A DNA stretch of 64,000 nt from a virus (Duplodnaviria; Caudoviricetes): the IMG/VR virus record IMGVR_UViG_3300031994_004484; one strand, 5' to 3'. Below the pieces are notes generated by a model that had not been told where the DNA came from, searched no databases, and worked only from the letters and a program-made list of their open reading frames with translations. Shown here piece by piece: positions 37,738-63,884 of this stretch. Each line of letters opens with the position of its first letter. Position 1 is the stretch's first letter. The translations under genes were made by a program, and so were the position numbers.

Positions 37738-37995
37738 ATGGGATGTAATTGTAAGAAAACGTCTGATGCTTCGGCCAAATATTCGGACGATGGAAAAACG
37801 CCGTTAAAGCGTTTAACCGGTTTTCCTTTGGTTTTGGGCTTCATAGGCAAGCTTTTCATATCAATTTTGGCGTTTGGGCTAATTATTGTTATATTGCCGT
37901 TCTTCCTGTTGTATGTGTTTTTCTGCATTATAACAGGAAAAGGTATAAGGATTAATTTGAATAAGCTGTTCAGAATCAATGCAAAACGAAAATAA
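37738..37995 (+). CDS. Small membrane protein with MGCNCKK N-terminus
   Basis: ~38 aa mostly hydrophobic stretch and basic C-terminus. Confidence 0.65.
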   Translation: MGCNCKKTSDASAKYSDDGKTPLKRLTGFPLVLGFIGKLFISILAFGLIIVILPFFLLYVFFCIITGKGIRINLNKLFRINAKRK

Positions 37996-40900: not shown

Positions 40901-43900
40901 GGGTTTGTTTCATATGACGAACTGTACAATATGGACGCACGTTCAATGTTTTCCACCATGAACTGCAACAACCTAAGGGAAAGACTAAACCCAAAAACGG
41001 GATATAAGGTTTACGATTTCAATTACAACTACCCCGAGAATTTTGACGGTACTCTCAAAAACCTTATGAAAGACGTTCCCGTAAATATATCGTACAGCGG
41101 AAACAAAAACCTTGAAAGAAGCAGCGATTCATATCTGAAATTCAGATACGGATTTGATAAAAACAACTTTGTTGTCGCGTTTTATGATGACGAAGATTCT
41201 GTCATAAGAAATGGTCATACAAGCGCAGGAAAAGGTGGCTATACCCTTAAAAATGTCAGGCGTTTCCCAAGATATGAAAACTCATTCTATTTCTATTTCG
41301 GATTGAAGAGCGGAAGCACTGCAATAAATCGTTTCATGGAACAGTTTTATGCTGATTGCAGAAATGATGAAGAAGGTTCTAACGCAATCAAGATAGATTA
41401 CAGACCAAACGGTTGGTGCGAGGATGGTATTGAGAACACAAGGGACGGTTACATTTCATTTGATTTGACAAACGTTGAACACCCATGTGTGATAACTTTC
41501 AATGAATTAACGGAGGGTGAAACTTTTGACAGGACATACACCGATATATATAGTTACAAACTATATATCGGAGCCTATAATGATGATTTGGAAAACGATG
41601 GTTACGAACGGTTATATGTTGATGCTGCTACACAAACAAAACAAAAACCTGAAGATGAAGCGTTTTCTGAAGATTATATAGCCCCATCATTGCCTAATGG
41701 AAGATATATTATAACCATTACGGATGTTTCAGGTGAAGAATATCGTGAGAATGCTATGTTTTCAAGAAACAAAGTCCAATTCAATACAATGGTTACACAT
41801 TTTACTTTGTCGAACGGCGAATTGGAGAACAGGTTTCCTAACACAGACGAACATTCAACGTATTATTACACCGCTTCAGACACAACACCTTCGGATAACG
41901 TAGAGTTGGTCAGGGAGATAGGTGGTTATGTTGCTATTTCAGATATAAACGGTGAATACGGCAGCATGACGGACAATTTCATAATAAGGGTAAGTTCAGG
42001 CGTTGATTTGCCCGATTACTATGGTTCCGAATATAAGGTTATAAACGGAAATGTCTCATATGGCGGCATTAAATACATATCAAACAATAACGGGGAGTAT
42101 GTTTTCGGTTTGCCGAAAGCAAATGTACAATATACTATAACCGTAACGGAATATTGCCCGCTTACCGAAACCGAATCAAGAAATTCAGTTTCGACAAAGG
42201 TTACACCTGAAGAGCCAATTCCGTTCAAGATGTTTGTAAACGGTATTGACAATACAATACTTTCCAAATTCAGAACGGGTTATATAAAAGATTCTAACGG
42301 CGTAATCAAATCCCCATATTATGGTTACAACGAGAATACGGGTGTAAGCAAAAATGAAGTGATAGGTTGGCTTGATATCGGGAAAGTTGGTGTTTCAAAA
42401 TTATTGGAGTATCCGCCAATTGAAACACTGGGAACATATTCTGGTGCTGTAAGTAATGCTGTCGAAGCGCTGAAGCCACATGATTCGGATGTCTATTCTT
42501 TCACAGATGAATACTATTTTGACGAAAGTTATGTGGACATGGAAATAGAGGTTTATGATGAACTGCCAACACCACAAGAAACCGGTTATGCAAAATATGT
42601 AAAAGTAAAAACAAATGACGATTCGTTTGATGAGACAGCTTATATATGGCAATACAGTCAATACAGTAATAATTATCAGCCGAAGTTGGATGATAACGGA
42701 AATTATGTTAGCACGCTGACATTGCAAGAATATTATGAAAGCGGGTACAGCAATTGTGTTGATGTTATAGATGCTATTAATGTAGTGATACAAAAAAGGT
42801 TAGACCTTGTATCCTCAATGTTTGATGCTTTTTGTATGTATGAAGATACAGATGGCGGAAAACCCATTTCAATAACTTACCAAACAAACGCCATTCCGGT
42901 AAAAACCCTTGTTTATTATGTACCCGATATTATTTTCACAAACAATATAAGCAACAGGGTGGACGGTGTTGTTACAGATGGAATTGGCACTCCGACTTTA
43001 GTACCTTACGGTTCATATGTCATGTTGGATGCAAACAAAGAGGAAAATACAATACAATCATTCGGATTGCCTACAATATCCAAGAGTTCAGACAACACAA
43101 AGCCTGTTTTCACAAAAATGGTTGGAAATTTATATAAAAAACCTCCGTATTGTGCTATAAAAAATCAAATGGGCATGACAGTACCTTCTGAAACAGGAAC
43201 CGTTCCGTTCGGAACCAACAGTATTGCAGGTGCTATGAGCGAAACGGAAGGTGGTATGGATTCGATGTTCGGTTTCCATATTATAGACAAACGTCCCTTC
43301 ACCAAATTAAATGTATGGCTTCCCATAAAGAATTATCCGATACACTGGCCGGATATTGATGACACAAACCCAACACCAATAAACGGCTTAAGGAAGGGTT
43401 CGTATTTTGACATGGACGGTTGTGTTTCAGGCTATCTTTACAACTGCATTTCTACATCATCAAACAGAATCGCTGAATTTTCCAAACAAGATGCCGGTAA
43501 GAATGTTAATTTTTATACAATCACAACCAAGACGGATGACATAACAGGGGTTCAAATTCCTGATGAATATGCGGTCCCGACAAAACGTCTTATGTATGGC
43601 GATGTATATCCACAAGATTATGTGTATTCATACAATGATTTTATAAAGACGGAAAATCCGTTTGAAGGTTTTGATTCGGACAGTATTGACACAGGTGGAG
43701 TAAACACCACATATCGTTATATACCATTTGATTCTGAAACAACGTTTCTTACAGTGGAAGACTCTAAGGTTTTATACCAAAAGAATCTAAACTCTTCTTC
43801 AACGTTCGGTTTACCGGAAGACACATTGGTTTATAACGGGGCTACGATAAACCCTGTTTTTACCAATATGGACGCAAAAGCCCCTAATTATATGATTTGT

Positions 43901-44527
43901 TCGGTTAAAAATCCGATATATCAGAAGGTTTATGACAATTCACCGAATCTTATCGAGAATGGTGTGAACATGACGTATGGAAACAGGTTTCTTCTTCCTC
44001 AATATCCAATAATTCCTAGTGACGAATCTGTTACAAGTGTCTTTATTGTTGGCTTTGCAAACAACGGGGAATATCGGGCAATATCACCGACATATGAAGT
44101 ATCCAAGGTTTATGTTGAAGCATATTCAAATCCTGCTGTTAATGGGTTGACCGTGAACCTTGTATACAAGGCAGACGAAGAATTCCGCGATTATTATCTG
44201 AGATATTATCCGCATGAAATAATTGTTGAATTTAGGGAAGTAATGGGACAGTACACACAAGACATATATACCCCACAATGGGATTATGAAAACAATGATT
44301 ATATTTTCCCTGACCCGGAACTTATATATTCTGATATGAAAACGGTTAAATCGGGTACATTAGAAGGAAAATACAATGAATTGTATCAGGACCCCGTTGG
44401 AAACAGGCGTGAAACATACATTTTCGAAGGGATAGGTGAGGGTAGTTATATTGACATGAAAAGTGTTGTTGTGAAGATTAAGGATGTTACGGGCATAATA
44501 AGATTGACAAAACCGTTTGAGGCGTAA
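37979..44527 (+). CDS. Large virion/baseplate protein (2182 aa)
   Basis: N-terminal carboxypeptidase-regulatory-like fold (GRV....GI.NAKVS, T.TN.SGDY.I.GVP.G); internal hydrophobic segment; Cys-rich middle. Confidence 0.75.
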   Translation: MQNENNSYRIRTEVGNNAPNVLNVKLNQSFEFLNILSLKIGQENLYKVPAAPYGVVLGRVLANQAYGIENAKVSIFIPKDETVFEVKDDILYAYSSTTSLNYDGVRYNLLPSYVDEACHQNVGTMFEKEYVLDNNDVIRIFDKYYTYTTRTNSSGDYFIYGVPVGQHTLHVDVDLSDIGKLSVRPHDMIGQGYNIGMFESPNKFKADKNLNMLPQIKSQDKPIQVYPFWGDTSDDDTNAMITRADIEIDYKFEPTAVFMGSIISDKGSNSISHKCVPDIRTGKMSELSTGQGKIEMIRKTFDGRVEEFSVNGNQLIDNNGVWCYQIPMNLDYVGMDEFGNIVPTDNPEKGLPTRARVRFRVSMDEDPMDDSARKRAKFLIPNNPRLTDDYPEFKKSHEADYNFGTFTKEESYRDLFWNNVYTVKSYIPRLQRRGTANTKKFTGIKMVNHSGDNNPMPYNNLSIKMNFMYIFLCSVMTVLMNFIYVLNNVLSFIGRVLINAGIALATFSSGTTGINCNEDDDNDEEKPQKPLLKAGVDLVVAGMKCVIRINNDICSENATPDQYIILGNEKIINKWLQKIGKICVNEKHKKVYDRIKSSCAFEKIEIGDEGETVDGCAYYNILGGEDGVNASKPEFVMNCVQNTLAQENEVTSFNFHNDWINGVLYAPLWYRKIKPRRRVRNTNLSTNKVDDWCNGESHVDSAYTGKKVKRVKLCQTCAQQRNFTPSNANRQKINPIDKVIAEGSAPKDGYKLERSCYGFKCHRKVTSLIRVDDGIIIRRETKYGEYVYYYKSLEYGEDKFKNILNPSKNGEVKLLFATDLVLLGSLNDCDTNGTPQFFRHLNETTYQMPPDLLSLSWNTIDNKVTTNEIENNNDEYEEIDSGSVETEFTGADYGNVGYDQWHPEGKKEKYNDYTYKGSNEYNNGGLFYDLTCSNSFVSPKGCVNMSRICEFGVSLDQSMNLIGNDGTLQHISPDGFVSYDELYNMDARSMFSTMNCNNLRERLNPKTGYKVYDFNYNYPENFDGTLKNLMKDVPVNISYSGNKNLERSSDSYLKFRYGFDKNNFVVAFYDDEDSVIRNGHTSAGKGGYTLKNVRRFPRYENSFYFYFGLKSGSTAINRFMEQFYADCRNDEEGSNAIKIDYRPNGWCEDGIENTRDGYISFDLTNVEHPCVITFNELTEGETFDRTYTDIYSYKLYIGAYNDDLENDGYERLYVDAATQTKQKPEDEAFSEDYIAPSLPNGRYIITITDVSGEEYRENAMFSRNKVQFNTMVTHFTLSNGELENRFPNTDEHSTYYYTASDTTPSDNVELVREIGGYVAISDINGEYGSMTDNFIIRVSSGVDLPDYYGSEYKVINGNVSYGGIKYISNNNGEYVFGLPKANVQYTITVTEYCPLTETESRNSVSTKVTPEEPIPFKMFVNGIDNTILSKFRTGYIKDSNGVIKSPYYGYNENTGVSKNEVIGWLDIGKVGVSKLLEYPPIETLGTYSGAVSNAVEALKPHDSDVYSFTDEYYFDESYVDMEIEVYDELPTPQETGYAKYVKVKTNDDSFDETAYIWQYSQYSNNYQPKLDDNGNYVSTLTLQEYYESGYSNCVDVIDAINVVIQKRLDLVSSMFDAFCMYEDTDGGKPISITYQTNAIPVKTLVYYVPDIIFTNNISNRVDGVVTDGIGTPTLVPYGSYVMLDANKEENTIQSFGLPTISKSSDNTKPVFTKMVGNLYKKPPYCAIKNQMGMTVPSETGTVPFGTNSIAGAMSETEGGMDSMFGFHIIDKRPFTKLNVWLPIKNYPIHWPDIDDTNPTPINGLRKGSYFDMDGCVSGYLYNCISTSSNRIAEFSKQDAGKNVNFYTITTKTDDITGVQIPDEYAVPTKRLMYGDVYPQDYVYSYNDFIKTENPFEGFDSDSIDTGGVNTTYRYIPFDSETTFLTVEDSKVLYQKNLNSSSTFGLPEDTLVYNGATINPVFTNMDAKAPNYMICSVKNPIYQKVYDNSPNLIENGVNMTYGNRFLLPQYPIIPSDESVTSVFIVGFANNGEYRAISPTYEVSKVYVEAYSNPAVNGLTVNLVYKADEEFRDYYLRYYPHEIIVEFREVMGQYTQDIYTPQWDYENNDYIFPDPELIYSDMKTVKSGTLEGKYNELYQDPVGNRRETYIFEGIGEGSYIDMKSVVVKIKDVTGIIRLTKPFEA

Positions 44528-47500
44528 TGAAAGAGATACGTTTAACTTCGTCGGATTCAATATCTTCAATAAACGAAGAGCAGAGTGTCAGCATAGAATT
44601 AAGACAGACAAGCAAAAAGAACACGTTGACAGATATAAGTGCTGTTGTTGATGCATATGAAACTTATCAGCGTGAATCGTCGGCTTCTACAAAGTACAGG
44701 CTGACACTTACCATAAATCCGTTCTGTACAAACGTATTGTTTAATACCTGCACAGAAATAGTGGCAAATGACGGCGCTTATGAAACAACAACACAAGGAC
44801 AGCCTGAAATAATTGTTGTTACAGACAGGGAGCCTTCAAAATTACCTTCAAATGTTTTTGCTAAAAATGTATGTGGAAGATTAAACGGTTTAAAAAGGGC
44901 CTATATGGTTGACAACACGGAATATTCGAGTGAAAATATAGGTTTCACTTACTATCCCGGTTATGATATATTTGGCAACCACAGGCTAAGAAACTTGTCG
45001 TTCAGGTCGGTAATACCGATAACAGGAGGAACATCCAACCAAAAATACAACACAATAGAGGACACGATGCGAAACATTGACGGCACTCCGGTTAAATTCG
45101 TTCCTAGGATGGATTATGGAAACACAACCTTTATAAACAAACATCTTTATGATATTTCAAATATATTGTCAATGGAAAACGGTGAATCTGTATCAGCCAA
45201 CCTAACAAACCAAAATGGTTGGTATGGCTTCTACAATAATTCATCGATAACACCAAAGAAGATTGGCAACAAGGCAGTTGTTGAGAGAGACGACAACCAT
45301 GTTATAAACAACAAGGGAAATTGTGAGTTTGTTGATATGTATCCCGACAGGACGCTTTATTCCTTCAACCCGAAAACGAATCCACACAAAAGAAGAATGG
45401 AAAAGAATTGGGATATATGGCTGACATATCCGTATGAGAATTTCTATCATCATAATTTGGTCTCAAACATATATGCAAATGACGGAACTTCAGAAGCTGA
45501 CAAGAAAGCAAACGCGCTTCTTATAATGCATGCGAAAAGTCAGATAAACAGAAACGGAATGAAGGGAATTGAATTCAGGACGTTTTGTAAGCACAATTTG
45601 TCTCCGAACGATTATGTGCAAATATATTACTCACATGATAACGGTGTGCATTACACGGCATGTTCCGATTTTTATAGGGTTTCATACATCGGTGACATGA
45701 AAAACGAAAACAAAGGCTACTACTTCGCCACGATGGATTCAAACATTTTATCTGAGGTTTTTTCGGATAAAATCATACACTATTTTTACACGGAAACCCC
45801 TATTCCACCGGTTCATTACAGAATCGTAAACGGGGACATAGATGAAATTCCACAAAATAACGATAACACCGATTCGGATTACGAGCCGAACATTTGCAGG
45901 TATTTTTATGACACTGCAACCACGCTACCGAACGTGACATGGGATTCAGAGAATACTGTTGATGAGTTTCCGCATGATGTCCAAAACGGGCCTCAATACA
46001 TACGTAAGAGAATTCCGAATGCATATCAATATTTTAAGTATGAAAACGAAACGTACAATATATTGGATAATGATTTTAATTCTGGTAGTGAAAGCTTTGG
46101 AAATGGGAATACGTTTGACGACATCCCTGTGGGATACATAAGCGACTACATAAGGGTTCATCAGTATGAATACTATGAGGCCACTTACAAGTTTTATGAA
46201 CAGAAAGAGGGTAATGTCGATGAGATTGTGAATAAAGCTTTTAAGAATGACATATCACTTCGTTTTGCCAAGATTTCAAATGGTTTGAAGTGCGAATATT
46301 ATATAAGGAAGTTCAGAAAACTCCCCAATTTTACCTATAAAAAGGAGGAAATGGATGATTCTGTAATTAAGAACCATATAAAGTTTGACGAATATGTTGA
46401 GAAAAACGCGACAAAAGACGGAAAACTTCGCAATTTTTCATGTGAGGCGTATCCTTTGGCGTTTGCAAACACAATTTACGGTGATCCGATAACACAGTAC
46501 CAGTTTGTTGACACAATGGACATCTACGGGATAAAGGACAACCTGAACAGGCCCATAACCGAAATGTACGCCACGGTGGTAAAGAAGAATGTCGGTTATG
46601 ATGACTGGTACAACAAACATAAATATTCGGATTATACAACATCAGACGGAAAGCTCCATAGGATTGAATATTCACATTGTTTCGGTAAAGTAACAAGCGG
46701 TTTTGAATTTATGGCTGATGAAACCGACGATTCAAAAGACAGGGAAAGAAAAGCCTTCTTATCTGACTCATCCCTTATAACAAACATTCCGTCCTCATGG
46801 GAGGGTATAGAAGGCGAACCGCTTGAATGGTGGGGTGATATAAACATGAAGAATGGGATTACGGAAGGTGTGCTCGAAGATGATGTTGAATTTTTCGGTG
46901 ATGTTGTTGAATACAATCCGTTCACGGTTTCCGAAACAAGTCTATCAGACGTTCATTTAAGGTTCAATACAGCCCAAAGGGAAAACGGGAGCAAAGAAGA
47001 TTACACGTTCACGTATAAAGAGCTCATTGGTGATGATTACACCGGTCAATTTGAAACAGAGGAAAAGAAAGAAGGAAGGTCGATATTATGCCCTGAGGGA
47101 TATCACTACAAAGCACATTACAATATCCCATTAAGGTCTTTTGGCAACGACATAAGACAGTCATCTCACTATTCAATGGGTGTCATATCAGCCGAGCCTG
47201 TGCAGATGGACGGTATTTTCATTAAATTGAAAACAAACCAAAAATACAATTTCGGTTCAGGCAACAATATATTCATATGCAACGATGCCGAAGGGCTGTG
47301 GTACAACAGTTCGATTGTTTCGTGTGAAGACAGTACAACATTCATAATAAATCCTATATCAAAGGATGTGGTGAAATACGAGGGTAAACCTTATTTGGAT
47401 TGGATAGAGACCTGTGAATTGATAAACGGTGGCAAACTAAGAATAAGGGTTGTGAATGAAAGCATACCTGACTATGCAAGAAACATTGGTACAAATCTTT

Positions 47501-47742: not shown

Positions 47743-49646
47743 AATACAGGATAAACACCAACATACAGTCAGCAAACGTTACGGAAGTCCCGCTGTTAAG
47801 ACGGGAGATTTCCGGCATTGGTGATGATGACAGGTTTGTTTCCGTCACCTGTTATTATGATGGTGACCTGAACATAAGAAAAGACAGTGTCATATATCTG
47901 AGGGAATATTACAATACACAACCATTCAGTGATAAAGAAGGGGAGATAAAACTTCTTGAGTTGAAACCGGAGATAACAGAGGCAAATATAGAATACCGTT
48001 ACTTTGTGTTTAACATGGGCAAATACTTCAACTTGTCCATATCGGCCATAGAAGCTTTCGATGAGGATAATTTGGTTAGGTTGCGTTTTATTTTTGAAAC
48101 GCCGCATTATTTCAGAGAAATCGATGATGAAATCGGTTTCTATATTGATTTTTATGACAGTGAAGGGAACATGTATGAGAAATATTTCGACGGATGTGAG
48201 ATAGAGGACGAATATTCTTTGATATGGTCATACGACAGTACAAGCTCGTTTATGGATTTGTTCATGTGTACCGTATTCAATAAAGACACGTATACTTTTG
48301 TCGGATATGAAGGAAACGAAAACTCTGTTTTAGTTGATGAAATACCCTCGATCGCTTGTTTTACAGACGAAGTCTATCTAAAAAAGAAAGTTACCTCCGA
48401 TTGTGATGACACTTATGAATATTATGAAAAGGAGTGCAACAACGGAGACATATCTTCTTTAATAACATTCAGGGAACAGTTTCTTACTGATTATGATGTG
48501 TATATGGAAACGGGTGACATACGAATTACGTTACCACTTTCGCAAATGCATGACACTTTGTTGTTAAACGAGGATATTGTCATGAACAAATATGTTCAAG
48601 ATGAAATCCTTTTATCGACAAACACTTCGCCTGAAATGGAAAAATATGTATATCACCCTGTTTTTATCAAAAAAGCTAAAAATTTTGAAACCGAGGACAT
48701 TTACAAAATAAAATTCAACCTTCATTTCAGACAGCACAGAGGCGACGATTGGAAAGCTGAAGACAACACGTTTTGGAATGGTGTTGACAATGAGACAAAG
48801 GAATTGGAGAAAAGGCTTGACGCCGCGTATGGAAAGAAATTTTTCACATATTATGACAAAAGCAAACAATCAGACTTATTGTCATATCTCGGGTTCACAA
48901 ACAATGATGTAAAATTCCAAAAGAACAAGTTGAAAAAATCCTTTTTGAGACTGATGTGGTATGATTCAGACATTTCCACCCGCCAAAATCTGCTTTATTA
49001 CGCAAACGTATATCTTGACGGAGGTAAATTGTTTCTGAAATATATGAACAACAGTTCAACTGAAGGTTATGTTCTTCCAAATATGGAAAAAAAGGTTGTT
49101 TTCACAGGCGCAAGGGTAAATATGGAATACGCCCCGGAAGGTTTTGTCAATATGACCGATGACGAAATAGAGGAACACAGGCTTTCCTCACAGGTTTCAA
49201 TAACAAACATATATGATTCAGAATCATCAAGCGAAGGGTACAATCTATATCTTTGGGCTGATAGTGAGAAAAGGGAAATGCCTGACGACATATATCTTAA
49301 AATAGAATTCAATCATGCCGGTTATGGCAGGACAATACCTTTTTTCATGCCGTATTTTGACTACGAGAAAGAAGGTAAATATGGAATAAAGACGTTTGAG
49401 GAGATAATGTATGATTGGAGGGTCGGAAACGGTTACGGAATAAGGAAATTCAACAAATACAGCTATATACACTTCAAATGCCATTATGACAAGGAAAATG
49501 ACAGAAGGGTTTATTATTTGGACCCCGAAACATATGGGGATTGGGCTTTTTATGGAAACAAGACCAACGATGACTCTTCCCCGAACGAATTGGAAATAAA
49601 CCTCTACGAAGGCAAAGTAACATTTCTAAACGAAAACGACGAATGA
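47736..49646 (+). CDS. Putative virion protein
   Basis: 636 aa, overlaps its neighbours in the operon. Confidence 0.75.
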   Translation: MLKYRINTNIQSANVTEVPLLRREISGIGDDDRFVSVTCYYDGDLNIRKDSVIYLREYYNTQPFSDKEGEIKLLELKPEITEANIEYRYFVFNMGKYFNLSISAIEAFDEDNLVRLRFIFETPHYFREIDDEIGFYIDFYDSEGNMYEKYFDGCEIEDEYSLIWSYDSTSSFMDLFMCTVFNKDTYTFVGYEGNENSVLVDEIPSIACFTDEVYLKKKVTSDCDDTYEYYEKECNNGDISSLITFREQFLTDYDVYMETGDIRITLPLSQMHDTLLLNEDIVMNKYVQDEILLSTNTSPEMEKYVYHPVFIKKAKNFETEDIYKIKFNLHFRQHRGDDWKAEDNTFWNGVDNETKELEKRLDAAYGKKFFTYYDKSKQSDLLSYLGFTNNDVKFQKNKLKKSFLRLMWYDSDISTRQNLLYYANVYLDGGKLFLKYMNNSSTEGYVLPNMEKKVVFTGARVNMEYAPEGFVNMTDDEIEEHRLSSQVSITNIYDSESSSEGYNLYLWADSEKREMPDDIYLKIEFNHAGYGRTIPFFMPYFDYEKEGKYGIKTFEEIMYDWRVGNGYGIRKFNKYSYIHFKCHYDKENDRRVYYLDPETYGDWAFYGNKTNDDSSPNELEINLYEGKVTFLNENDE

Positions 49647-52093
49647 GACAATACAGGTTTGAAACAAGTATGGAGGATATGACATCAAGGGTACCAGGCA
49701 TGTTTGCCTACCTTGAGTTCAATGAGGATTGGACAACAACGTTGCATCCGGCCACGGATTCATATGTAGGGTCTTGGGGTAAGGTTGTTGAGAATATAAC
49801 CCTTCCGTGTGGCACAAGCCTATGTTCTTATGCCCAATTGAATAACGAACCGGAAAATCATATATGGACAGAAGACGAGACTTATTCATATGATTCGGAT
49901 ATGGATATGAATTATTCGGTTTATTCAAGTGAATATGCAAGAAAGGTTGAATATTATTGGTATTCCGAAATTGAATGTGATGACAGCGAAAGTTATGTGG
50001 AATCGGAAGAATTGCCAAAAGACGTGACCGAAGAATCGCCGCAATACATAAAAGTCTTGCAAAAAAACAGCGACGGAGAATATATTGTTGATTGTCAAGG
50101 AAACAAATTAGGATTTTGTTATGAGAAAATAACAGAATATTCTTACTACAAGAAAGAGTGCATGCTTGTTGAAGGGGAGACATACACGTATAAAACGCTT
50201 ACCGATTATTATTACCGTTTCAAAGACAAGTTCGGTGATGATGATTCGTTTATAAGTTTTATGGACCGTGGTTTCGGAAAAATAGATGTTGACAAAAATT
50301 TATTGAACCTTGGCGACAACGAAGAGTACCCAAACGTTCCTGATTATATATACCTGTCAAATATACCGGCTCTGATTGAGAAATACAAAGGTTACAAAAG
50401 AATATGTGAATTTTACGAGTCACATTATATTGTTTTCGGGGAGTTTGACGAAAATCTTGACAGAAAATGCAAGTCGTATAACGCAATGGGCGGCGACAGG
50501 TTTTTGGATTATCTTCTCAGGATGTCCGATAAAGCAAACGCAGTTGCCTCAGAATACCTGTGTTATGCAGAAAACCGCTCCCATGATTTGAATATATCTT
50601 TGAACATACCACTCTTCCAATCAAAAAACGACCTCGGTTATCTTTCGTGTTACATGAATGAATTCGTACCGGGAGAACATTATCAGCACGGGGAATTGCT
50701 TACTTACAACGGAAGGACGTACATATGCCTGCTAAACAGATTTCTTCCTGACGGGAACAATTACCCATATGTTTTGTGCGGGAAAACCCTGTATAAAATG
50801 GTCTTCAATAAATATGAAAAGGTAGATGCCAATGAGTTAACATTGTCGTATCTACCTTCAGCATTGTATAACGGAATGTCATGCGTTCTTTACAACGGGG
50901 AATATTACATATGGAATCAAACCGCATATGAAAAAATAGACGTTACAACATATTGTACCGGTTTTTGGGATGATGATAAGGAACAGAATGAATTTGACAG
51001 GCAACACTTTGTCCTATTGTCTGAATATGTTGCCAATGAGCCCGAATCTTTGGGAATACCATTGAAAGATTTATTGTCTGACTCAGACAAATGGTATTCG
51101 GATGAGAACTTCAATGGTAGCAGCTTCCGTATATACATTGCTTTACCGTACCTTCCACATTCGTACATTTATCCAAATATAAAATGTGGGGAAACGTTTA
51201 TGGTATGGGATGAAGACTTATCAATGTATGTTGTTGATCCGGATTCTTCGTCAAAGTACGCCATAATCGGAACAGCGGACAGTCAACTCAGGAATCTTAG
51301 GGGTTATTCACAATATATGAATGGAAACGATTATATAGAGGACCCGCCTGCAACAGAAGATTGGTTGTATTATTATAAAGTGGGTAATTTCAATGCCAGT
51401 GGAAGCATATTGTGGGATAGTATAGGAAATATAAGACGTTTCACGGATTCAATGATTTCTGTTGGTGATTATGTTAACGATCTTATGGCATATGGAACAG
51501 TCCTTACATCAATATCTTGTGATACTGATGAAAAAACACTTACATTCACATACGTTGTCAATGGGCACTTGAAAGCAAGGCTTGCTGAAGTTGATGTTGA
51601 CAATGACGGAAACGAAATATTCCGATATGACAAGTTTGAGTATGATGACGAAGATAGCCACGGAATTGTCTATACAGAAAAACATCCATATAACGACCCT
51701 GATATAGACGAACTTGTTTCTAATGGCGATTTCAATGCTTTTGTTGAAGGAAGAAAAGAAGATATAGGTAATTATATGAAAAAATACGGTTACAAGAAGT
51801 TTGTATTCTCAACTGAAGCTGTTTTATCATCTGTGAATATCGGAAATTACACCTATGATGTTCCTAGTATTGTTTCCGAATTTTCCGAAACAGTTGAAAA
51901 CGAGCTTGATTACACATATCAGCCATTATTTAAGAAGGATTATTTTGCAGGGTATGCATACGAACCAAACGTGGACGCTTCTATTGACATTCAGAGGGGT
52001 AACGCGGCTTCTTATGAGCGTCACATTCGTTTAAGCGAATCAAAAACGGTTGAAGATATTTCATCTTCAGGTTTCTATGCGTTTTCAGAATAG
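49643..52093 (+). CDS. Putative virion protein
   Basis: 816 aa, Tyr/Asp-rich, C-terminal IQRG...YERH.RL. Confidence 0.75.
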   Translation: MRQYRFETSMEDMTSRVPGMFAYLEFNEDWTTTLHPATDSYVGSWGKVVENITLPCGTSLCSYAQLNNEPENHIWTEDETYSYDSDMDMNYSVYSSEYARKVEYYWYSEIECDDSESYVESEELPKDVTEESPQYIKVLQKNSDGEYIVDCQGNKLGFCYEKITEYSYYKKECMLVEGETYTYKTLTDYYYRFKDKFGDDDSFISFMDRGFGKIDVDKNLLNLGDNEEYPNVPDYIYLSNIPALIEKYKGYKRICEFYESHYIVFGEFDENLDRKCKSYNAMGGDRFLDYLLRMSDKANAVASEYLCYAENRSHDLNISLNIPLFQSKNDLGYLSCYMNEFVPGEHYQHGELLTYNGRTYICLLNRFLPDGNNYPYVLCGKTLYKMVFNKYEKVDANELTLSYLPSALYNGMSCVLYNGEYYIWNQTAYEKIDVTTYCTGFWDDDKEQNEFDRQHFVLLSEYVANEPESLGIPLKDLLSDSDKWYSDENFNGSSFRIYIALPYLPHSYIYPNIKCGETFMVWDEDLSMYVVDPDSSSKYAIIGTADSQLRNLRGYSQYMNGNDYIEDPPATEDWLYYYKVGNFNASGSILWDSIGNIRRFTDSMISVGDYVNDLMAYGTVLTSISCDTDEKTLTFTYVVNGHLKARLAEVDVDNDGNEIFRYDKFEYDDEDSHGIVYTEKHPYNDPDIDELVSNGDFNAFVEGRKEDIGNYMKKYGYKKFVFSTEAVLSSVNIGNYTYDVPSIVSEFSETVENELDYTYQPLFKKDYFAGYAYEPNVDASIDIQRGNAASYERHIRLSESKTVEDISSSGFYAFSE

Positions 52094-52170
52094 CCACTTC
52101 TTGCTTCGGAAACCTGAAAAACATATATTTATCTATTAACTGCTAAATATATTTTTAATTTTGGGAACTG

Positions 52171-53085: not shown

Positions 53086-53091
53086 TATCCT

Positions 53092-56000
53092 ATGGGCCGG
53101 TACAGCAAGTCATATAGTAATTTCATTCTAAGGAAAAAACATCAGAATGTAAACGAAGGTTTTTTGTTCGAACGCGATTGGGTGACAATCGGAAACGTGC
53201 ATCGTTTGGAACCGGGTAAAAAACCCTATTTTGGTGATGCCGGTTTTATTTTCACCGACAACAGTATTCCGTTTTTCAAAAAGAAACATGATTATGGGAA
53301 ATGGGTGGCACACTTTGTCTACGACGATGTTAAGGATGCAAGCAATCAAATCAACGAGGTCATCCTTAATATGGATAGCGACGATTTGCGTTCGTATGCA
53401 TATTACGGTTCAATGTCGGATTTAGTGAGAACATGTATTGAGGATATTGTAGCATACTTTCCCGGTTTATTGAGATTGAAGGACACCACTCTACAGATAA
53501 GTGATATAGACGGTTCGTTGGTTGACACGGGTTTTTATGAGATTGAGAACAACTTTGCTTTGGATTTACATACAGCGACTTCTTCACTTGTTGATTTTGA
53601 TAATATACTGAAATACTTAACCGCAAGCTATAACAGTTATGAGGTGACGTCATTCGACCCCAATGAAAATGTGACCGTTTCTTCTCCTGTTGTCAGTTAT
53701 GAAGTGATTAGTCTTATAGAAGAGATATTGAAAACCACAAAATATCATGACGAAGGCTATGATTTTCTCTATTATAAAGGAGTCTTGTATAAATGGAATA
53801 ATCCCGCACAAGAATTTGAGGAGGTCAAATACTCGAATGATTGTACAAATTATTTTGTTAAGTGTGACGAATATATCAGATACGGAGACGAATATTACGA
53901 ATGGAGCGACGAATACGGTCACTATGTTCCGCTGACGAATGTTTATGAATTATGCGATGATGACAATCAGAACCTGTTTAAGATAACGATAGGAACAGAG
54001 GATGAAAATCATTACACAATACGAATGTATGTTGTTAACGGTGCAGAGGTATATTGTTTTGACGATGCACAGTCAACTGCCTCGTTTTTAACAATCCAAC
54101 CGAACAAGAACGTCATAGAAAATTATTTCAAATCTCTTACCGGTTTTGAAAGAAAACTTTTAACGAGGAAAAGCAAACCACTGTACACAAACACCTTTAA
54201 AGTTCCATACAAACTTCCGAGTGAGGCATATGCAATGGTTGATAGAATTTTCACATGGCCTTCGTTGGGTTATTGTATAGATGTTGTATCACCTTCATTT
54301 GTTTCATTTGTTAATTCACTAATGGATGCAGGGGAACTTTATGATGAACTGTATTCGGATTGTATATGGAGATGCATGACCCACGAGTCTATAAAGAATT
54401 TCGATTGGACATACAGGAGGGTATATAGTAACACTGACGAACAGGATAACATAGACGGCGGAAACCGGATGATGGAATTCCTTCATTTTTATGGAAGGGT
54501 ATATGATGAAGCAAAAATGTATATAGAAGGCATAAAGTCAACAAACAATGTTTCGTATGACGGAATGCTTAATGTTCCAGACGCTGAACTTTCTGACAAA
54601 AATACCGTTCACGGATGGGACGTTGTTTCAACAGTATGGGAACCTTACTATTACACCGAAATAGAGCTTGAAGATATTCCGGATGATGTTGAGGTTATTC
54701 CATTCCCATATTTGCCCGTTGATGCGAATAGCGAAAGTCCTGAATATATTTCAGTTAGATGTTATGAAGAAGATGATGACATTCTCTATTATCACCGTGA
54801 GTATAATGATCCTTCATTATTGTTCCTTACCGACGAATTTCTTAACAATGAGGATTATATAATAGGGAAGTACGATTCATGGATAACGCACAATCATAAT
54901 ATGGGTTATTGGAATATAGGTTGTGAGATACCTGAAGACGCAGAAGATCCCCCTGTCCCAATGGCTTCGGTTCCGCCTACAGCGACAGAGAACGATCCTG
55001 AGTACATAGAGGTTGACGGTTCGTATTACAGGAAAGGTTATCTTGTATACAATGAATTGTCAGGTGACCCTATGTATGGTCTAACCGCATATTGGAATGA
55101 GTCGAATACTCTTGATGCACTTCCGCAACTAATAACCAGTTATAGCCCGCAATATATCAGGCTATACAAAAACGGTTTTTACAGATATTACACCCTTTCA
55201 GACAACGGATTTAACAATAAGTTCTATACACACAGCCTTTGGTTTGATGCAAGAAATACAAACGCAACAACACCTGTAACAACCGATATAGAATTCCAAA
55301 GAAGACTATTTCTTTCAAACAATAGGATATTCAAGACAAAGGGAACAAGGGCCGCTATAGATATGGTCATGGGTATGTTTGGTTTAGGTAGTGATGGTGA
55401 AACTCCGGATTATACGATAACAGAACATTACAGGATAACACATCCGAAGAAAGGTGACGATATATTCTATTTTTACGAAGAAGTGTTATCAACACCACAA
55501 ACAGCGGTCTTAGTCCCGTCACTTGAAGAAGCTATTGCTGATATAGGGGAAGATTCTCCAAACTACATAAGGGTTGTAAACAACGGAGTAACACATTTAT
55601 ACCAAAAAAACAGTGAGTATACCTATGACGAAATGATTGTTGAATTGTCAAGACACAAACTGTCAGAAAGATTATACAATGATGAATATTCAGGAGTCCC
55701 TTTGAATAGTACAATTATAGGTAATGACAAGTACATAATACCATACCAAACAAACAGGAAGGTTTATGACGGATACTTGTATTACCAACAAAAAGGTGGG
55801 TGGGGAAAATGGTCTGACGACATGTCATTCACATATGACTATTCTGAAACAATACCATATCTTCATATGATGCCGAACATAGGCTCGCTTTTATCTGTTG
55901 TATCATTGGATTTGAGAAAGGACGATGTATATTATGTCTTTGATATAACAGATTATGTTGATTACGATGAGGATGTTCCGTATGATATGTCACATTTTTT

Positions 56001-57384: not shown

Positions 57385-57386
57385 AG

Positions 57387-60300
57387 ATGTCTAATTGTAT
57401 AGATAAATTGATTTGTGACAATTCAACTGGTTGTGATATCATAATAACCGACATCAATGGTAATCCAATTGATGCACGGTATCTCAACAGTGGTGACAAT
57501 ATATACATCTCCTTTACAAGGAGGGAAGGGTATATTTTCCATGGTTTTACATTTCAGCCGTATGAAGGGGAAGCAATTCCCGTTGAGGCCGTTGAAATGT
57601 CTGATGGGAGATATAGGACAACGGCACGATGTGACGGGACATATATAGCCAATTTTGAGGTTGAAACATACAATGTTTATGTCAATCCAAGGCCTGATGA
57701 CGGTTATCATGGAAAAACATATGGCACCGGTGTTTATGAATACGGTACATTGATAACAATATCTGCTGAGGAATACGCAGGATATCATTTTGTCGGTTGG
57801 TATATAAACAACCAACAGATATCTGACGAAAGCCAATATGAATATCTTGTCAAGGGTGAAGTTTACATTATAGGAAAATTCGATGCCGACAACTATAGTA
57901 TAGTAGCAAAACCGAATGACAGGACTTTGGGTCAAACAACAGGTTCGGGTATATATGGGTACAATTCAACAGCAACAATTGAAGCAATACCTTTTGAGGG
58001 TTCCCATTTCATAGAATGGGATAATGGATGGACCGATGCGCAAAAAGAGACGCTTGTTGTTCAAAACGCTATATATGTTGCCAAGTTTGCCAAATACAGA
58101 TGTTCGGTAAAAGTTAATGTGGTTTGTGATACGGGCACAAATTCAATAGAAGTTGTTACGGGTGATGAAACAGAATATGAAGAGACTGAAATCAACAATT
58201 TGCCAAAATCATCAGCGCAAGAAGTTGAGGTGAACGAAGAGCCAAAAGCACAACAGGCTCCGATACCGGTTCCAACTGTAAAATGTGGCATAATACTTGG
58301 TGAAGGCAGTTATGAATATGGGAGCACCGTGACCCTTACAGCATTTCCCGAAGAAGGTTATGTGTTCACTTCTTGGGATGACGGAATAAGCGAGCCAATA
58401 ACTGATTCCAACTATTCTTTCACAATAACCGAAGACATTGTTCTTACCGCTGTTTTCAGCACAAGAATGTGCAACCTAAAACTAAATGTTTCCCCAAAAA
58501 ATTCGGGCTTTATAAGCCTATCTGCTTCAAACGGAACATTCAACGGAGGATTGTTCCCATATGGCACTAAAATTCATGTTGAAGCCGTTCCGATTGGGAT
58601 TAATAAGTTTGAAAATTGGTCTGATGGTGATTTGTCAGCAAGCAAAACATTTGTAATGACAAATGATATAACTTCGGCGGCGTTTTTCGTAAAGAAAACA
58701 CCTAAGTACAAGCTAAAGATTAATTTTGACAGTATGGGTGGTTATGCCAAAATACTCAAAGGTATGACAGATGTAACCATGGCTTATAAGAATTATGTTT
58801 TTGCTAACGTTGAGGAAGGCACCGTTCTTACTGTGCAGGTAATAGCCAAAAGCAAACACAGAATTTCAGGGTGGGATGACGATATGGAAGAAACATCACC
58901 AATAAGGACTTTTGGAATGTGGGGCGATATCGAAAGAAGTGTTTATTTTGAGGAAATAATAACGCATGAGATATGTTTGAATGGTTCTGAATTATTTGAT
59001 TTCGAAAATGGAAACATACTTGTTACGTACGGCAATCAAAGTATAACCCTCACCAACAAATACCAAACTTCGTTTTTCGATGTTCCTGAAGGGGAGGAAT
59101 TGAGACTCGAATACATTCCAACAAACGAGGAATACGAGAAGATGTCGTGGTCAGACATCCAAATGGGAGATATGGAATATGAGATTGAGGGTAATGTAAT
59201 GATAGTGCGTGTGACAGAAGACGGCTCAGTAACACCGGCAACAATCCAAAACAGGGCAAAGATAGCGGTAAGAAACAACCCTTCGGATGTATTGAACGGA
59301 AAAATAGAATTTACTATAACACAGGACAACGGAGAAACCGAAACAATAACCCCGAGAGACGATACAAGGACAAGCCAATTGCTTGAAATCGAAGCAGAAA
59401 ATAACGGATATACAGTTTCAGTGACAACGCCTGAAATACCTGGGTACCATTTCAAGGGGATATTCAGTACAAACGGAAGCAATTCAAACGGTTCTGATGA
59501 AATACAGGGAGAATTGAATGGCAACACAACATATACATGCGTATATGATGAAGACGGTTGTTCGGCTTCGCTTGTTTTTGACATACAGGATTGTGCAACC
59601 GCGTCAGTTTCAGGCACAACAACAAAAGTTGATTCGTCTGTAGCAATAGCCCCGAAATCACAAATGTCTGTTGTTGGTGACACGGGATATTTTGTCACTG
59701 ATGTAATAGACAGACAGTCAGGAAATTCTGTTGGTGAAGGCGATTTTTATTATATTCCATACCCATTTACCGATAGCAACGGAATAGCGAGATATTACCG
59801 TAGCATTGATTTATCAAGAATACCGGAAGGTTCTACTATAGAAACCATATATGATGCAAAATATGTTTTAGGTCCAAACAGCCCGCAATACGTTAGATTG
59901 GTAAACCCGGGTTTGAAAGCAAGGTATGCGCAACTAAAATCAGTTAATGTTTCATTGCCCTCCATATATGACGCAACAAGAAACGACCTTTCCCAAAGCC
60001 AATTTTATGAAACTGTTTTATACGATGGCGGAAACATATGGGAAATACTTATAAATCCAACAAAGACAAGCCCGAATTTCATAATGGACAAGACGACGGG
60101 TTCTGCATTTGCGAAAATAAACAAAACCCTGTCATATACAGTGAATTGTGGTGAAGAATATCAGGTTTGTATAACGCAGACAAATTACACATATCCTGAT
60201 TTTGTGTGGTATCCCATATTCGCCATACCACCATATGTGCAAGAATACTCAATTTTGAGAGACAACCGTAATTATCTTAATATGGTGTATTTCACATACA

Positions 60301-60410: not shown

Positions 60411-60414
60411 TACA

Positions 60415-62919
60415 ATGGATTGCAGTTGGATTAAAATATATGATGCAGCCATAGGCGGAAACGAACTTGACCCTAATTCATTGACGCCCGGCCAGAACAA
60501 AATCTTTATAGACATAAGCGAGATGCCATCCGAATACGAGTTTCTCGGATGGAAGGATATATCCGGTAATGCAATAGGTGATGATGTGATATCACTTGTA
60601 AGCGGCGGCAGATATGCAACAACATCGCAATGCGGAAGCAATTTTGTCGCTTCGGTTAGAATGAAGGAGGAATCAGTATGTTCTCTTGTTGCGATACCGT
60701 TTGACTCTAAAATGGGTGACGTTACACCAACAGGAATCCAATACGGGTGCAACAAAACCGTCGAAATATCGGCAAGACCTAAATGTTGTTATGAGTTTGA
60801 TTCATGGAACGATTCCGAAGGTCCCGATGTTTTTAGTCCGGATAGGACTGTGACAATTTTGAGCGGTTCGGCAAGATATGTGGCATATTTTGATCCGATA
60901 AGATACAGCATACAGGTTTTTGCAAATAATGACACATGGGGCCGCGTAAACGGTCCTCAAAATGATGTTATATGTGAGGAAAACTTTATTATAGAAGCCA
61001 TACCGGAAGAGGGGTATGCTTTTGTCAAATGGGACGATGATAATACTAATGCAAGAAGAGAGATAACATTTGAATGTGATGGCAAAAGAGTTTATACGGC
61101 CACATTTGCCTCAGATAATGAATATGTTATAACTTATAATGCTAACTACGGAGCAAATCCGCAAACAATCGAACAAGGCTATTTCCAAGTAGGTGCACCT
61201 GTTAAGTTTATGAGTGGGTTTGAAAGGGAAAATTATGTGTTTCTCGGCTGGGGAAAGGAAAGTGATAGTGCGGAACCGGACCCTTCAATTATTCCCGGTG
61301 AAACAGGTACATATGATTGGGAAGAAAGTATAACATTATATGCCGTATGGAGGGAGAAGGACGAACATAAATTTATATATATATACGGTGGCGAAGAACA
61401 CCCATCTTCTAATGGTTATATGGAAGGTGCTGTTGTTGTATTAGACGAAGACCCATATCACGGCGAACTTGAGTATATTTTCCTTGGATGGCGTATGACA
61501 GAGGAGGAAAACGAAGTACCTTCCGAAGACGTTCCAATAATTGGCGCCGGAGGAAGATATACAATGGGCCGGCGCGACACATATGCATATGCGGTTTTGG
61601 CTGAAGACGACGGTAAAGTTTACAATACGCTCACCTATGTTTTCGGAGATGGTTTCGACAATCAGGTGATAGGCGGAATAGTTAATGGTGATTCCGTTAT
61701 ACTGCAAGATCCGATTGTTTTAGGCGTGGATTTTAACCGTGTTCATAAAAATTTTACAACATGGTATATTACTAACAGTTCATTGCCACATGACCCAGAC
61801 TCCCAACTTATTATAACCCAAGATACTGTTTTGACGGCTCAAACAGTAACACAAGAAACTTATGAAATTGAATTTTTAGAGAAATGTGATGATGAATCGC
61901 AAGGGCAAAGCCCCGCTTCAATTATCGGGTATCCTGATGAGATAGTAACTTTGCCCGACATGGCTTCATATATTTGCGGCGAAAACATTTTCAAAGGATG
62001 GTCCAAAGATGATGACGCAACATTTGCGACATACGGTCCCGGTACAAGTATAGCTATTCCCGGAGATATGACCCTTTATGGTATATGGGAAAAACCTTCC
62101 GAATTCAGTGTCTATTACATTGACAATTATAATTGTGGGATAACTGATACCAACACATATTCTGATGGTGACACTGTGATTGTAAAACCGTGCAATTGCA
62201 TGACGCAAGACGGATGTCATTGTACCGGATGGGTTGACGGGGACGGAAACGAATATGAAGGAAATGACACGTTCCAAATACATCACAATACAGTTCTTAA
62301 TGCCGTTTTTGACTGTTGCCTTGTCAGGTTCAGGACAATGGGTAGCGTTACAATAACAATAGACGGAACCGCCATAACAGACAATACCAAATTGAATATA
62401 GACGACAACACCGAGTTTGATGTTGAGGTTGGTGATAATCAGGTTTTCCTTGGTTGGTATGACGCAACCGACAGCGGTTATATATATCCGTGTGAAGAAC
62501 CGTCCGATTACAAATATGTTGTGGTTCCATACACATTAAGGCCTTCTTCAAGTGACATTACCACACTATCAAATGAGAGTTTCATACAGACAATAGAAGA
62601 CAACACACAAAAACTGAATTCATTTATAATGAATTCACAAACAGGCGAAATAAGACAGCGCGTTGGGGTTTGTAGCGGTTCTGAGGAATACAGCCTATCA
62701 TGCGGTTCAACAGTATTTGCCATCGCGATGCCATATGAATATACACAAACTGACGGAAACGACGGTAATACGTATGTGAAATACGATAGCAGGCCATATT
62801 CGGATTTTTACTCATACCTGAATTCAAATCCGACTTATGATAGTCTTCCGGCATTTGTTGAGGTTGTTATCGGCGGAATATCATGCTTTTACGTGGTTCA
62901 TATAGGAGGTATGTTATAG
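60415..62919 (+). CDS. InlB-B-repeat tail fibre/adhesin, paralogue of the preceding gene
   Basis: Repeats such as Y.ITYNAN.G, F.RENY.FLGW, TLYAVW, F.GW...DMTLYGIW. Confidence 0.75.
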   Translation: MDCSWIKIYDAAIGGNELDPNSLTPGQNKIFIDISEMPSEYEFLGWKDISGNAIGDDVISLVSGGRYATTSQCGSNFVASVRMKEESVCSLVAIPFDSKMGDVTPTGIQYGCNKTVEISARPKCCYEFDSWNDSEGPDVFSPDRTVTILSGSARYVAYFDPIRYSIQVFANNDTWGRVNGPQNDVICEENFIIEAIPEEGYAFVKWDDDNTNARREITFECDGKRVYTATFASDNEYVITYNANYGANPQTIEQGYFQVGAPVKFMSGFERENYVFLGWGKESDSAEPDPSIIPGETGTYDWEESITLYAVWREKDEHKFIYIYGGEEHPSSNGYMEGAVVVLDEDPYHGELEYIFLGWRMTEEENEVPSEDVPIIGAGGRYTMGRRDTYAYAVLAEDDGKVYNTLTYVFGDGFDNQVIGGIVNGDSVILQDPIVLGVDFNRVHKNFTTWYITNSSLPHDPDSQLIITQDTVLTAQTVTQETYEIEFLEKCDDESQGQSPASIIGYPDEIVTLPDMASYICGENIFKGWSKDDDATFATYGPGTSIAIPGDMTLYGIWEKPSEFSVYYIDNYNCGITDTNTYSDGDTVIVKPCNCMTQDGCHCTGWVDGDGNEYEGNDTFQIHHNTVLNAVFDCCLVRFRTMGSVTITIDGTAITDNTKLNIDDNTEFDVEVGDNQVFLGWYDATDSGYIYPCEEPSDYKYVVVPYTLRPSSSDITTLSNESFIQTIEDNTQKLNSFIMNSQTGEIRQRVGVCSGSEEYSLSCGSTVFAIAMPYEYTQTDGNDGNTYVKYDSRPYSDFYSYLNSNPTYDSLPAFVEVVIGGISCFYVVHIGGML

Positions 62920-63884
62920 TGGGACATAAGATAGGTTATATAATAGAAAGTGACGATGAAGTCAGGATGGAATACATAAGGGAGGAATACGAACCGTATT
63001 TCCAACCTGAATGGGTTAACGGTGTAAACAGTTTCAACAACACAGACGATGTTGACCCTAATAATGTAGACAGTCCTGACCTGATAAGGGTTTCTGAAGA
63101 TTCAGGATATGGATATTACTCAAAAACCCTCATAGTTCCGTGGAAGACAACGAATTTCAGGATATTGGTTGTAATAGACGGTGTTGAAGGCAACAACTCA
63201 TTCGTATATAGCGGATACAATACTTTCATAAAAACAAGAAGGGAAACCTCGAAGATATACTCCACAATAAAAGACAATAGGGACCATTCAAACCGAAGCG
63301 GCGCTATAACAATAACGCATTCTTCCGATGTGAATTCTACGGCCACACTGAAAATCCTCCAAGATGAATGTGATATAAGAATAGGTATGCTGTCATGTGT
63401 TGTAAACGACGGGGAAGAAATACCCATACCGCCGAATTTGTTTGAATATGAATTCGACACTCTGACCGAGATTTCCGACTGTAAAAAAGAGTCTATAAAA
63501 ATAAAGGTATTGGCGACAGGTGTTACGAATAGATTCTACATTAAAAGTATAAAGGAATATGTGGCCGTCGGCGAGATAGATAACACATACAAGTACATTG
63601 ACGGAAAGTTCTATAAAAGTTTCTTGAAATGGTCTAACGGCAATTATGTTACATATCGTGCAGAAGCTCTTGTTATAGACAACATAGGTTATCAACCAAA
63701 GAAATATGACAACGCATTCGCCATAAAAATAGGGACCGACAGCACAATCACCATAACAAACTATGGGCGCGTTTTTATGGAGCCGAACGCCACATACATA
63801 ATAACGTTGGCAAATTATGATGATATAGATGTCACTTGTGAGATAAGGTTGGTCTATAAAGAAAAACCGCTCAACTTGTTATAA
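62919..63884 (+). CDS. Putative virion protein (BACON/Ig-like segment)
   Basis: ORF 62883..63884; probable GTG start overlapping the upstream TAG; N....RSG.ITITH.......I.Q. Confidence 0.65.
   Translation: MGHKIGYIIESDDEVRMEYIREEYEPYFQPEWVNGVNSFNNTDDVDPNNVDSPDLIRVSEDSGYGYYSKTLIVPWKTTNFRILVVIDGVEGNNSFVYSGYNTFIKTRRETSKIYSTIKDNRDHSNRSGAITITHSSDVNSTATLKILQDECDIRIGMLSCVVNDGEEIPIPPNLFEYEFDTLTEISDCKKESIKIKVLATGVTNRFYIKSIKEYVAVGEIDNTYKYIDGKFYKSFLKWSNGNYVTYRAEALVIDNIGYQPKKYDNAFAIKIGTDSTITITNYGRVFMEPNATYIITLANYDDIDVTCEIRLVYKEKPLNLL

Follow-up and report, generated by a model that had tools for sequence, protein, structure and literature searches.

A putative small beta domain recurring at separate sites in the baseplate-operon proteins of an uncultured T4-like jumbo phage

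The late-gene region of IMG/VR record IMGVR_UViG_3300031994_004484, a virus of the Caudoviricetes from which a stretch of 64,000 nucleotides was analysed (the window, in what follows, is this whole stretch), raises the question of how one short acidic, Tyr-rich pattern comes to stand in a series of large proteins whose bodies are otherwise different. The original prediction, made from the letters of the window, had described this pattern (D/E-LP-x5-7-SP-x-YI-x-V) in seven or eight virion genes and had regarded it as a mini-domain spreading in frame, perhaps a shared docking tag or a glycan- or ion-binding decoration comparable to the Ig-like domains of phages, perhaps a mobile coding repeat comparable to the palindromic elements of Rickettsia. 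All 12 peptide strings quoted there are located at the nucleotide positions given for them, in nine consecutive open reading frames (ORFs) of the + strand (A2182 to I333, also called A to I below; see Table 1), and a search for the strict core [SD]-P-x-Y-[IV]-x-[VL] met it six times among the late genes and nowhere in the ORFs of the first 37 kb. The analysis reported here makes it likely that the motif marks an autonomous domain, acquired by the common ancestor of a small group of related, uncultured jumbo T4-like phages and now an accessory module of the virion.

Since profiles trained on their own targets are circular, the homology of the copies was judged with non-circular profiles. An independent profile, for which 17 units were taken from proteins of other phages that are not orthologous to those of the window (P0022, P0029, P0035-37 and the 802-residue ORF of genome G001) and calibrated on 20 locally shuffled copies of the window (maximum 5.5 bits), recovered the four units of F1430, those of I333, D816 (14.7 bits), B1071 and C636, and a second copy in B1071 at 5.7 bits, the other scores being listed in Table 1. 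Profiles from which the orthogroup of the target had been left out (null maxima of 6.4-8.4 bits) returned D816, B1071, I333 and C636, with G1007 at 5.0 bits; when one protein at a time was left out of the seven strongest seeds, E values of 3e-7 for D and 4e-11 for F were obtained, just 0.01 for G and nothing for B. None of the early-gene ORFs of the window exceeded 1 bit with the iterated unit profile, the best of them reached 2.2 bits with the independent one, and no minus-strand ORF of 83 fetched loci exceeded 5.5 bits; a later round of iteration, in which many F orthologues were included, strayed into the adjoining core sequence, and its results were not used. Taking as members those copies that a profile made from non-orthologous members finds above a composition-preserving null, the family includes the four units of F and those of D, B and I; with the marginal one of C, eight units in five proteins are supported, the C636 unit being further backed by a clean indel. 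The idea of a small domain shared by proteins with otherwise different bodies is thereby borne out, while the number of carrier genes had been set too high: five are supported and one (G) is tentative, and the copies in A2182, H834 and G1007 do not rise above locally shuffled controls. In A2182 the proposed copy (42557..42607, + strand) scored -0.1 bits with the independent profile; the orthologous protein of G001 is nearer to the consensus at that place, yet it too escapes the profile, and a genuine unit carried by the A orthologue of another genome (G005, see below) could not be matched to the proposed copy, as it maps elsewhere in the protein. The weak copy of H834 (62839..62865, + strand) scored between -1.0 and 3.0 bits.

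These failures give some weight to the view that the copies are not homologous at all, being Tyr-rich beta hairpins that look alike through composition or convergence; indeed, the proteins concerned are Tyr-rich throughout, three of the 12 claimed copies (A, H and G) are not above nulls of local composition, and in A and H the noise-level best matches coincide with the very segments that had been picked by eye, so that the pattern is easily imitated. Against this stand the scores of the independent and left-out profiles (10-35 bits, versus null maxima of 5.5-8.4 bits), the conserved positions, which extend over some 50 residues and include a Trp, an N-T-F and an L-P in a loop, and the coincidence of indel boundaries with unit boundaries; for F, D, B and I mere resemblance is largely refuted, and as a general account it is hardly credible.

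When the units of the window and of its relatives are aligned, a common layout is apparent, in which strand 1 (Y-x-Y-x-E) is followed by a Pro, by a long loop carrying the Trp and then N-T-F and L-P, by strand 2 (S-P-x-Y-I-R-V), by a short Gly/Asn turn and by strand 3 (Y-x-Y-Y-x-K); the conserved positions, spanning about 50 residues, are aromatic, hydrophobic or Pro. The Y-Y-x-E and Y-Y-x-K strands that had been noticed on either side of the motif correspond to strands 1 and 3 of the AlphaFold models, and the length of the unit, put at about 45-50 residues, measures 55-70 residues instead. A fixed metal site was considered and rejected, no Asp, Glu, Cys or His column being conserved across the family. 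For unit 3 of F1430, AlphaFold2 with an alignment of 23 units (alignment A2) gave a model with a mean predicted local distance difference test (pLDDT) of 83.6 and a predicted template-modelling score of 0.68, consisting of three strands (model residues 6-9, 41-46 and 49-55) and a well-ordered loop; in a second model, covering residues 480-870 of F1430 and based on the alignment of F orthologues only, this strand pattern recurs in each of the four units (pLDDT about 73-90), and the pieces of host core that lie between them are poorly predicted. The strands of unit 1 fall there at residues 519-524, 552-556 and 564-571 and the first two of unit 2 at residues 603-610 and 638-641, while the third strand of unit 2 runs on into strand 1 of unit 3 as one continuous strand (residues 644-656). 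The shared small fold and, in F, the tandem arrangement that had been anticipated are thus found in the models; in D816, a second unit candidate at residues ~66-112 is seen by alignment only, at 4.7-5.5 bits, within the range of the null, and is probably an N-terminally truncated unit. Taken together, the models portray the unit as a real beta mini-domain of about 55-70 residues, predicted to fold autonomously. Some of its variants are rich in cysteine: four Cys are conserved in the C636 unit and its orthologues, and many orthologues of F unit 1 have a Cys behind strand 2 and a second one behind strand 3 (F1430 has just the first), which may act as disulfide staples.

No family of Pfam, PHROGs or NCBIfam covers any unit, either in the proteins of the window or in P0022, P0035-37 and P0032; the family matches that do occur lie outside the units (Flg_new_2, the sheath domains of P0029, and a sub-threshold CBM_5_12 signal in D816 at residues 342-364, with 21 bits versus a cut-off of 26.2), and the CBM 5/12 profile was not found over the unit. 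Sequence profiles of two unit alignments (A1 and A2) met nothing below an E of 0.1 in the PDB, the best Foldseek match of the unit model in the PDB and in BFVD had an E of 1.9-4.3, and its best VIA-align match among 48,161 chains a Z of 2.3; the model of the 391-residue context reached E 0.9 and Z 3.6, the latter on a fragment of the helical core only, the ESM Atlas yielded no usable match, and a literature search found no description of the unit. That the pattern had not been recognised as a named family is in keeping with all of these searches; as the domain is very small, a search that detects no structural relative does not amount to proof of a new fold. In a profile search of 1.84 billion cluster representatives, just 20 proteins were retrieved at E<=1e-3, among them orthologues of F, B and C, a family of about 800 residues with four tandem units (P0022, P0036, P0037 and a G001 ORF at ~17.6-20 kb), a protein of 268 residues with three units, and a tail sheath of 1555 residues, again with three (PHROG 23, E 1e-43). 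The complete genome G001 has 12 units, distributed over B, C, D, F (four), I and its 802-residue ORF, while the unit-less genome G004 has 0 by profile. Judged by sequence and by predicted structure, the unit would constitute a previously undescribed and very rare protein domain family, and a new family of accessory domains of phage virions; its mini-fold, predicted with confidence, has no counterpart among the solved structures searched.

Regarding these other carriers, the four units of the tandem protein lie in its first 550 residues, and the protein has no Pfam or PHROG match; its representative in G001 (L107:1079-3484) is encoded about 70 kb from the baseplate operon of this genome of 372,793 bp, the window stopping short of the equivalent region. 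In the tail sheath of the L063-type phages (1480-1555 residues, PHROG 23), the units are found in a long extension at the N terminus, where P0029 has three and a single one was detected in the orthologue of genome G003 (at ~121 kb on the contig, L103).

Several known systems resemble the unit in one respect or another. Ig-like domains are reportedly present on phage virion proteins such as T4 Hoc and on tail and baseplate proteins. Together with FN3 and BACON they are accessory domains of phage virion proteins, the Ig fold being a beta sandwich of seven to nine strands; like them, the unit is a small beta domain shared by many structural proteins that are otherwise unrelated, varies in copy number between relatives, is dispensable in orthologues and accretes without repeats at the DNA level. 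It differs from them in that neither its sequence nor its model gave a detected match to one of these domains, in being predicted as three-stranded with a long ordered loop rather than as a seven-strand sandwich, in lying internally at several sites (Ig-like domains are mostly terminal) and in its rarity (20 clusters in 1.84 billion). No Pfam match to Big_2, I-set, FN3 or PKD was found over the unit, and in the structural comparison (Foldseek best E 4.3, VIA-align best Z 2.3) no Ig-like fold ranked first, though the lack of a match need not mean a lack of kinship. The sheath and baseplate wedge proteins of T4-like phages have insertion domains in their loops, usually specific to one protein; the likeness is that of lineage-specific extra domains in conserved tail proteins, one unit carrier being itself a sheath, and the difference is that a single unit family has settled, when the relatives are counted in, in at least seven families of host proteins. 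The WW domain, a three-stranded antiparallel sheet with conserved Trp and Pro, is likewise a very small beta module rich in aromatics and Pro, but no Pfam WW or structural match was obtained, and the unit has about twice the length of a WW domain and a 30-residue loop between strands 1 and 2. Finally, the InlB B-repeats (Listeria-Bacteroides or divergent; Flg_new and Flg_new_2) are small repeats of F, G and H and probably also exposed modules; they stand elsewhere (F residues 1180-1241, G 300-358, H 168-310), are unrelated in sequence, and give no Flg_new match in the unit regions.

Whether the units were inserted or belong to the ancestral body of their proteins can be judged from the orthologues, in which the presence/absence indels that had been expected at the module are indeed clean, in F, B, C and D. 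The close orthologues of F (50-95% identity) have all four units in place, while the more distant ones (P0011-P0019, about 33% identity) can be aligned to the left and right of the sites but are without residues ~518-705, the block that includes unit 1 together with units 2 and 3, and without residues ~790-845, where unit 4 corresponds to a clean gap of ~55 residues. In B, C and D, comparison with seven unit-less orthologues shows gaps co-extensive with the units (B residues ~445-570, C ~175-235, and in D the whole block 62-185, whose supported unit occupies residues ~100-185 with about 22 residues nested between strands 2 and 3); the second B1071 copy is inside the same inserted block, in which the B orthologue P0032 has four units. 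L063 keeps the units in C and D, and that of I333 is kept in L001, L002 and L063. Among the 83 loci, units in the baseplate operon were found in L001/L066, L002/L003 and L063 only, plus one in the A orthologue of L064. In the unrooted tree of E304, a conserved neighbour without unit, the unit-bearing loci form a group of five rows inside a (starred) clade of nine, itself nested in unit-less groups of 19, 23 and 53 rows; because the clade that carries the units sits far inside lineages that have none, the indels are read as gains.

The opposite polarity, in which the segments are ancestral core of the baseplate proteins and were deleted in all other lineages, is compatible with the conservation of unit positions in every orthologue of the carrying clade, with the lack of a root in the E304 tree and with the unit of the distant lineage G005. 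With the carrying clade nested at least four levels deep, it would however need repeated, parallel and precise deletions at six or more sites in four proteins; moreover, the units are predicted with high confidence to fold alone, and they occur in unrelated hosts such as the sheath and the 800-residue tandem protein. Ancestry of this kind is very improbable.

The units also appear to mark loops that tolerate insertions, including nested ones of hundreds of residues: besides the ~22 residues of D816, the hairpin of strands 2 and 3 and the F site have accepted ~190 residues inside unit 1 (P0003), and F orthologues of 2072-2081 residues have ~870 residues in the region of unit 1. The F loop that holds units 1-3 (after residue ~515) is a hotspot of accretion (P0003, P0007-9, L002:9983-16225), and the unit-less F orthologues P0016 and P0012 have unrelated insertions of 60-80 residues at the same point.

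The mode of spread was approached at the level of DNA, the Rickettsia palindromic elements being in-frame mobile coding repeats that are palindromic and recognisable in the DNA. In favour of a comparable element, currently or recently mobile, of which the unit would be the coding footprint, one genome has many in-frame copies in different and unrelated genes, short and with clean boundaries. However, a search with blastn-short among nine units gave just chance matches of 8-14 nt (E>=0.01), a repeat search of the window DNA gave no unit family, the conserved Ser and Arg are written with different synonymous codons in different copies, and at five insertion junction pairs there are no direct or inverted terminal repeats longer than 9 nt. 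Paralogous units are 14-30% identical versus ~43% for orthologous units, which dates the duplications to before these phages diverged; genomes whose proteins differ by 40-60% in sequence still have the units at the same positions, and none of the 83 loci offers a pair of close genomes that differ by a unit within near-identical DNA. What distinguishes the units from the Rickettsia elements is thus both the absence of DNA similarity and of inverted repeats and the presence of a protein segment whose conserved fold is under selection. The copies are the outcome of old domain accretion and not of an active mobile DNA element; the analogy with Rickettsia does not hold, there is no sign of ongoing spread, the units being positionally orthologous and stable within the carrying clade, and a footprint of recent mobility is highly improbable.

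In the account that fits these observations best, the domain was acquired by the forebear of a small clade of jumbo T4-like myoviruses, all uncultured, in which it now stands in frame at separate sites in B, C, D, F (two sites, with three and one units) and I, and, in relatives, in the tail sheath and in the protein of ~800 residues with four tandem copies. The copies are old and kept by selection on the protein rather than on the DNA; the insertion sites would be surface loops and the unit an outward-facing accessory module, which may add weak adhesion to polysaccharides of the host or of the environment, or extra bracing, as Ig-like, FN3 and CBM modules do elsewhere, and the tip of the strand 2-3 hairpin would be the platform for further nested insertions. 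An exposed accessory module is suggested because the hosts are baseplate-operon, fibre-like, sheath and tandem-array proteins; in B, D and F the identity of the units among orthologues falls 6-19 points below that of the remaining sequence, and in C and I the two are about equal.

The main alternative to an outward-facing decoration or adhesion module, which is favoured here, accepts the same domain and the same history but sees the role as architectural, the units binding each other or a common partner and so tying together an enlarged baseplate periphery. It is in line with the co-occurrence of units in several neighbouring baseplate proteins of one lineage, with the continuous strand of the tandem units, which in the models suggests a capacity for sheet extension, and with the conservation of the C and I units, which is on a par with that of their hosts; it is less easily reconciled with the units of the sheath, of fibre-like proteins and of a separate four-copy tandem protein, with the faster evolution of the B, D and F units relative to their hosts, and with the fact that no clade-specific partner gene was identified, no systematic search for one having been made. 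Such a docking role is rather unlikely, and less probable still is its bolder form, in which the units are self-associating docking elements that make a lattice across baseplate, sheath and fibre, or in which a dedicated, scar-free mechanism copies them in frame. If the former were true, a self-associating lattice (a sort of velcro) would have let the clade enlarge or re-wire its baseplate, and either of the two would be a new principle of virion evolution, beyond one more decoration domain.

Some observations weigh against an accessory domain gained once in a single clade. Were the root of the unrooted E304 tree to fall inside the small unit-bearing clade, the polarity of the gains would be reversed; L065 groups weakly with L063, yet has no units in B, C and D; and a genuine unit (21.5 bits) is present in the A orthologue of the distant G005/L064, so that the domain is not confined to one clade: either it was transferred from one lineage to another, or its origin is more ancient and its distribution patchy. 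As for function, the virion role of B-F and I has no profile match behind it and is inferred from synteny after the gp6-like wedge gene only; the conserved aromatic, Pro and hydrophobic positions probably form the domain's own core and do not hint at a partner, and the sequence of the unit singles out no residue as binding a ligand or lying at an interface. In G005/L064 (at ~111.8 kb on the contig, L087), the clear unit is near the C-terminal part of the A orthologue, elsewhere than the copy claimed in A2182, and a weaker one is found in an ORF of 717 residues.

With regard to the accessory domain itself, the locus shows with unusual clarity how one small domain can stand at many places inside the conserved baseplate proteins of a single phage lineage, for which the unit-less relatives are natural controls. 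In practice, the unit is an annotation handle for the baseplate proteins of uncultured jumbo phages, which have no PHROG match, and a compact candidate scaffold for structural and binding studies. The coordinates of the units and of the genes are collected in Table 1.

Table 1. Units, candidate units and late genes of the window (independent, profile of non-orthologous units; left-out, profile without the orthogroup of the target).
Feature	Residues	Window position	Strand	Evidence or remark
F1430 unit 1	516-575	54637..54816	+	16.5 bits independent
F1430 unit 2	603-652	54898..55047	+	14.8 bits independent
F1430 unit 3, top-scoring copy	650-716	55039..55239	+	35.4 bits independent; AlphaFold pLDDT 83.6, three strands
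F1430 unit 4, separate insertion site	790-847	55459..55632	+	10.3 bits independent; context-model pLDDT 81-89
D816 inserted block	62-185	49826..50197	+	supported unit 30.3 bits left-out
B1071 unit	445-519	45859..46083	+	13.6 bits left-out; 11.7 bits independent
B1071 second unit, possibly degenerate	527-557	46105..46197	+	3.5-6.2 bits, borderline
C636 unit, Cys-rich variant	172-246	48249..48473	+	8.6 bits left-out (null maximum 6.5); 7.2 bits independent
I333 N-terminal unit	24-92	62952..63158	+	18.9 bits independent; 11.1 bits left-out
G1007 motif segment, tentative	797-864	59775..59978	+	5.0 bits left-out (null maximum 6.4)
gp6-like wedge protein		35642-37648		upstream of the nine large late ORFs
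A2182		37979-44527	+	
B1071		44527-47742	+	
C636		47736-49646	+	
D816		49643-52093	+	
E304		52171-53085	+	
F1430		53092-57384	+	
G1007		57387-60410	+	
H834		60415-62919	+	
I333		62883-63884	+	

By its gene content, the phage of the window is a T4-like myovirus, although a distant one; its recognisable genes include, besides that of the gp6-like wedge protein, those of a gp32-like protein, a UvsX/RecA-like protein, a DnaB-like helicase, NrdD and a T4-type baseplate hub. None of the nine large late proteins (37979-63884) has a PHROG match at E<=1e-3, and the Pfam domains of their ORFs are limited to B-repeats of the InlB type (F, G and H), none of which coincides with the motif. No relative of F1430 was found by tblastn among 50,697 GenBank phages, and the gp6-like wedge protein has just six distant matches to GenBank phages (~26% identity); the relatives come from IMG/VR, on contigs that measure 200-412 kb and of which two are complete and bear terminal repeats, and because of this the phage is assigned to an uncultured family of jumbo (giant) phages. 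The synteny B-C-D-E-F is kept in about 80 IMG/VR jumbo-phage loci and, together with the position after the wedge gene, it suggests that B-I are virion proteins; E304, the best conserved of the nine (37-81% identity), is a useful marker of the family.

The InlB-type B-repeats (Pfam Flg_new_2 and Flg_new) are located at window positions 56629-56815 (F), 58284-58460 (G) and 60916-61344 (H), and the N-terminal regions of G and H (~220 residues) are paralogous, with 29% identity. The C-terminal half of G1007 (residues 553-1007, positions 59045-60410), in which the tentative motif segment falls, has no counterpart in the L001/L002 orthologues and is consistent with a swapped receptor-binding tip.

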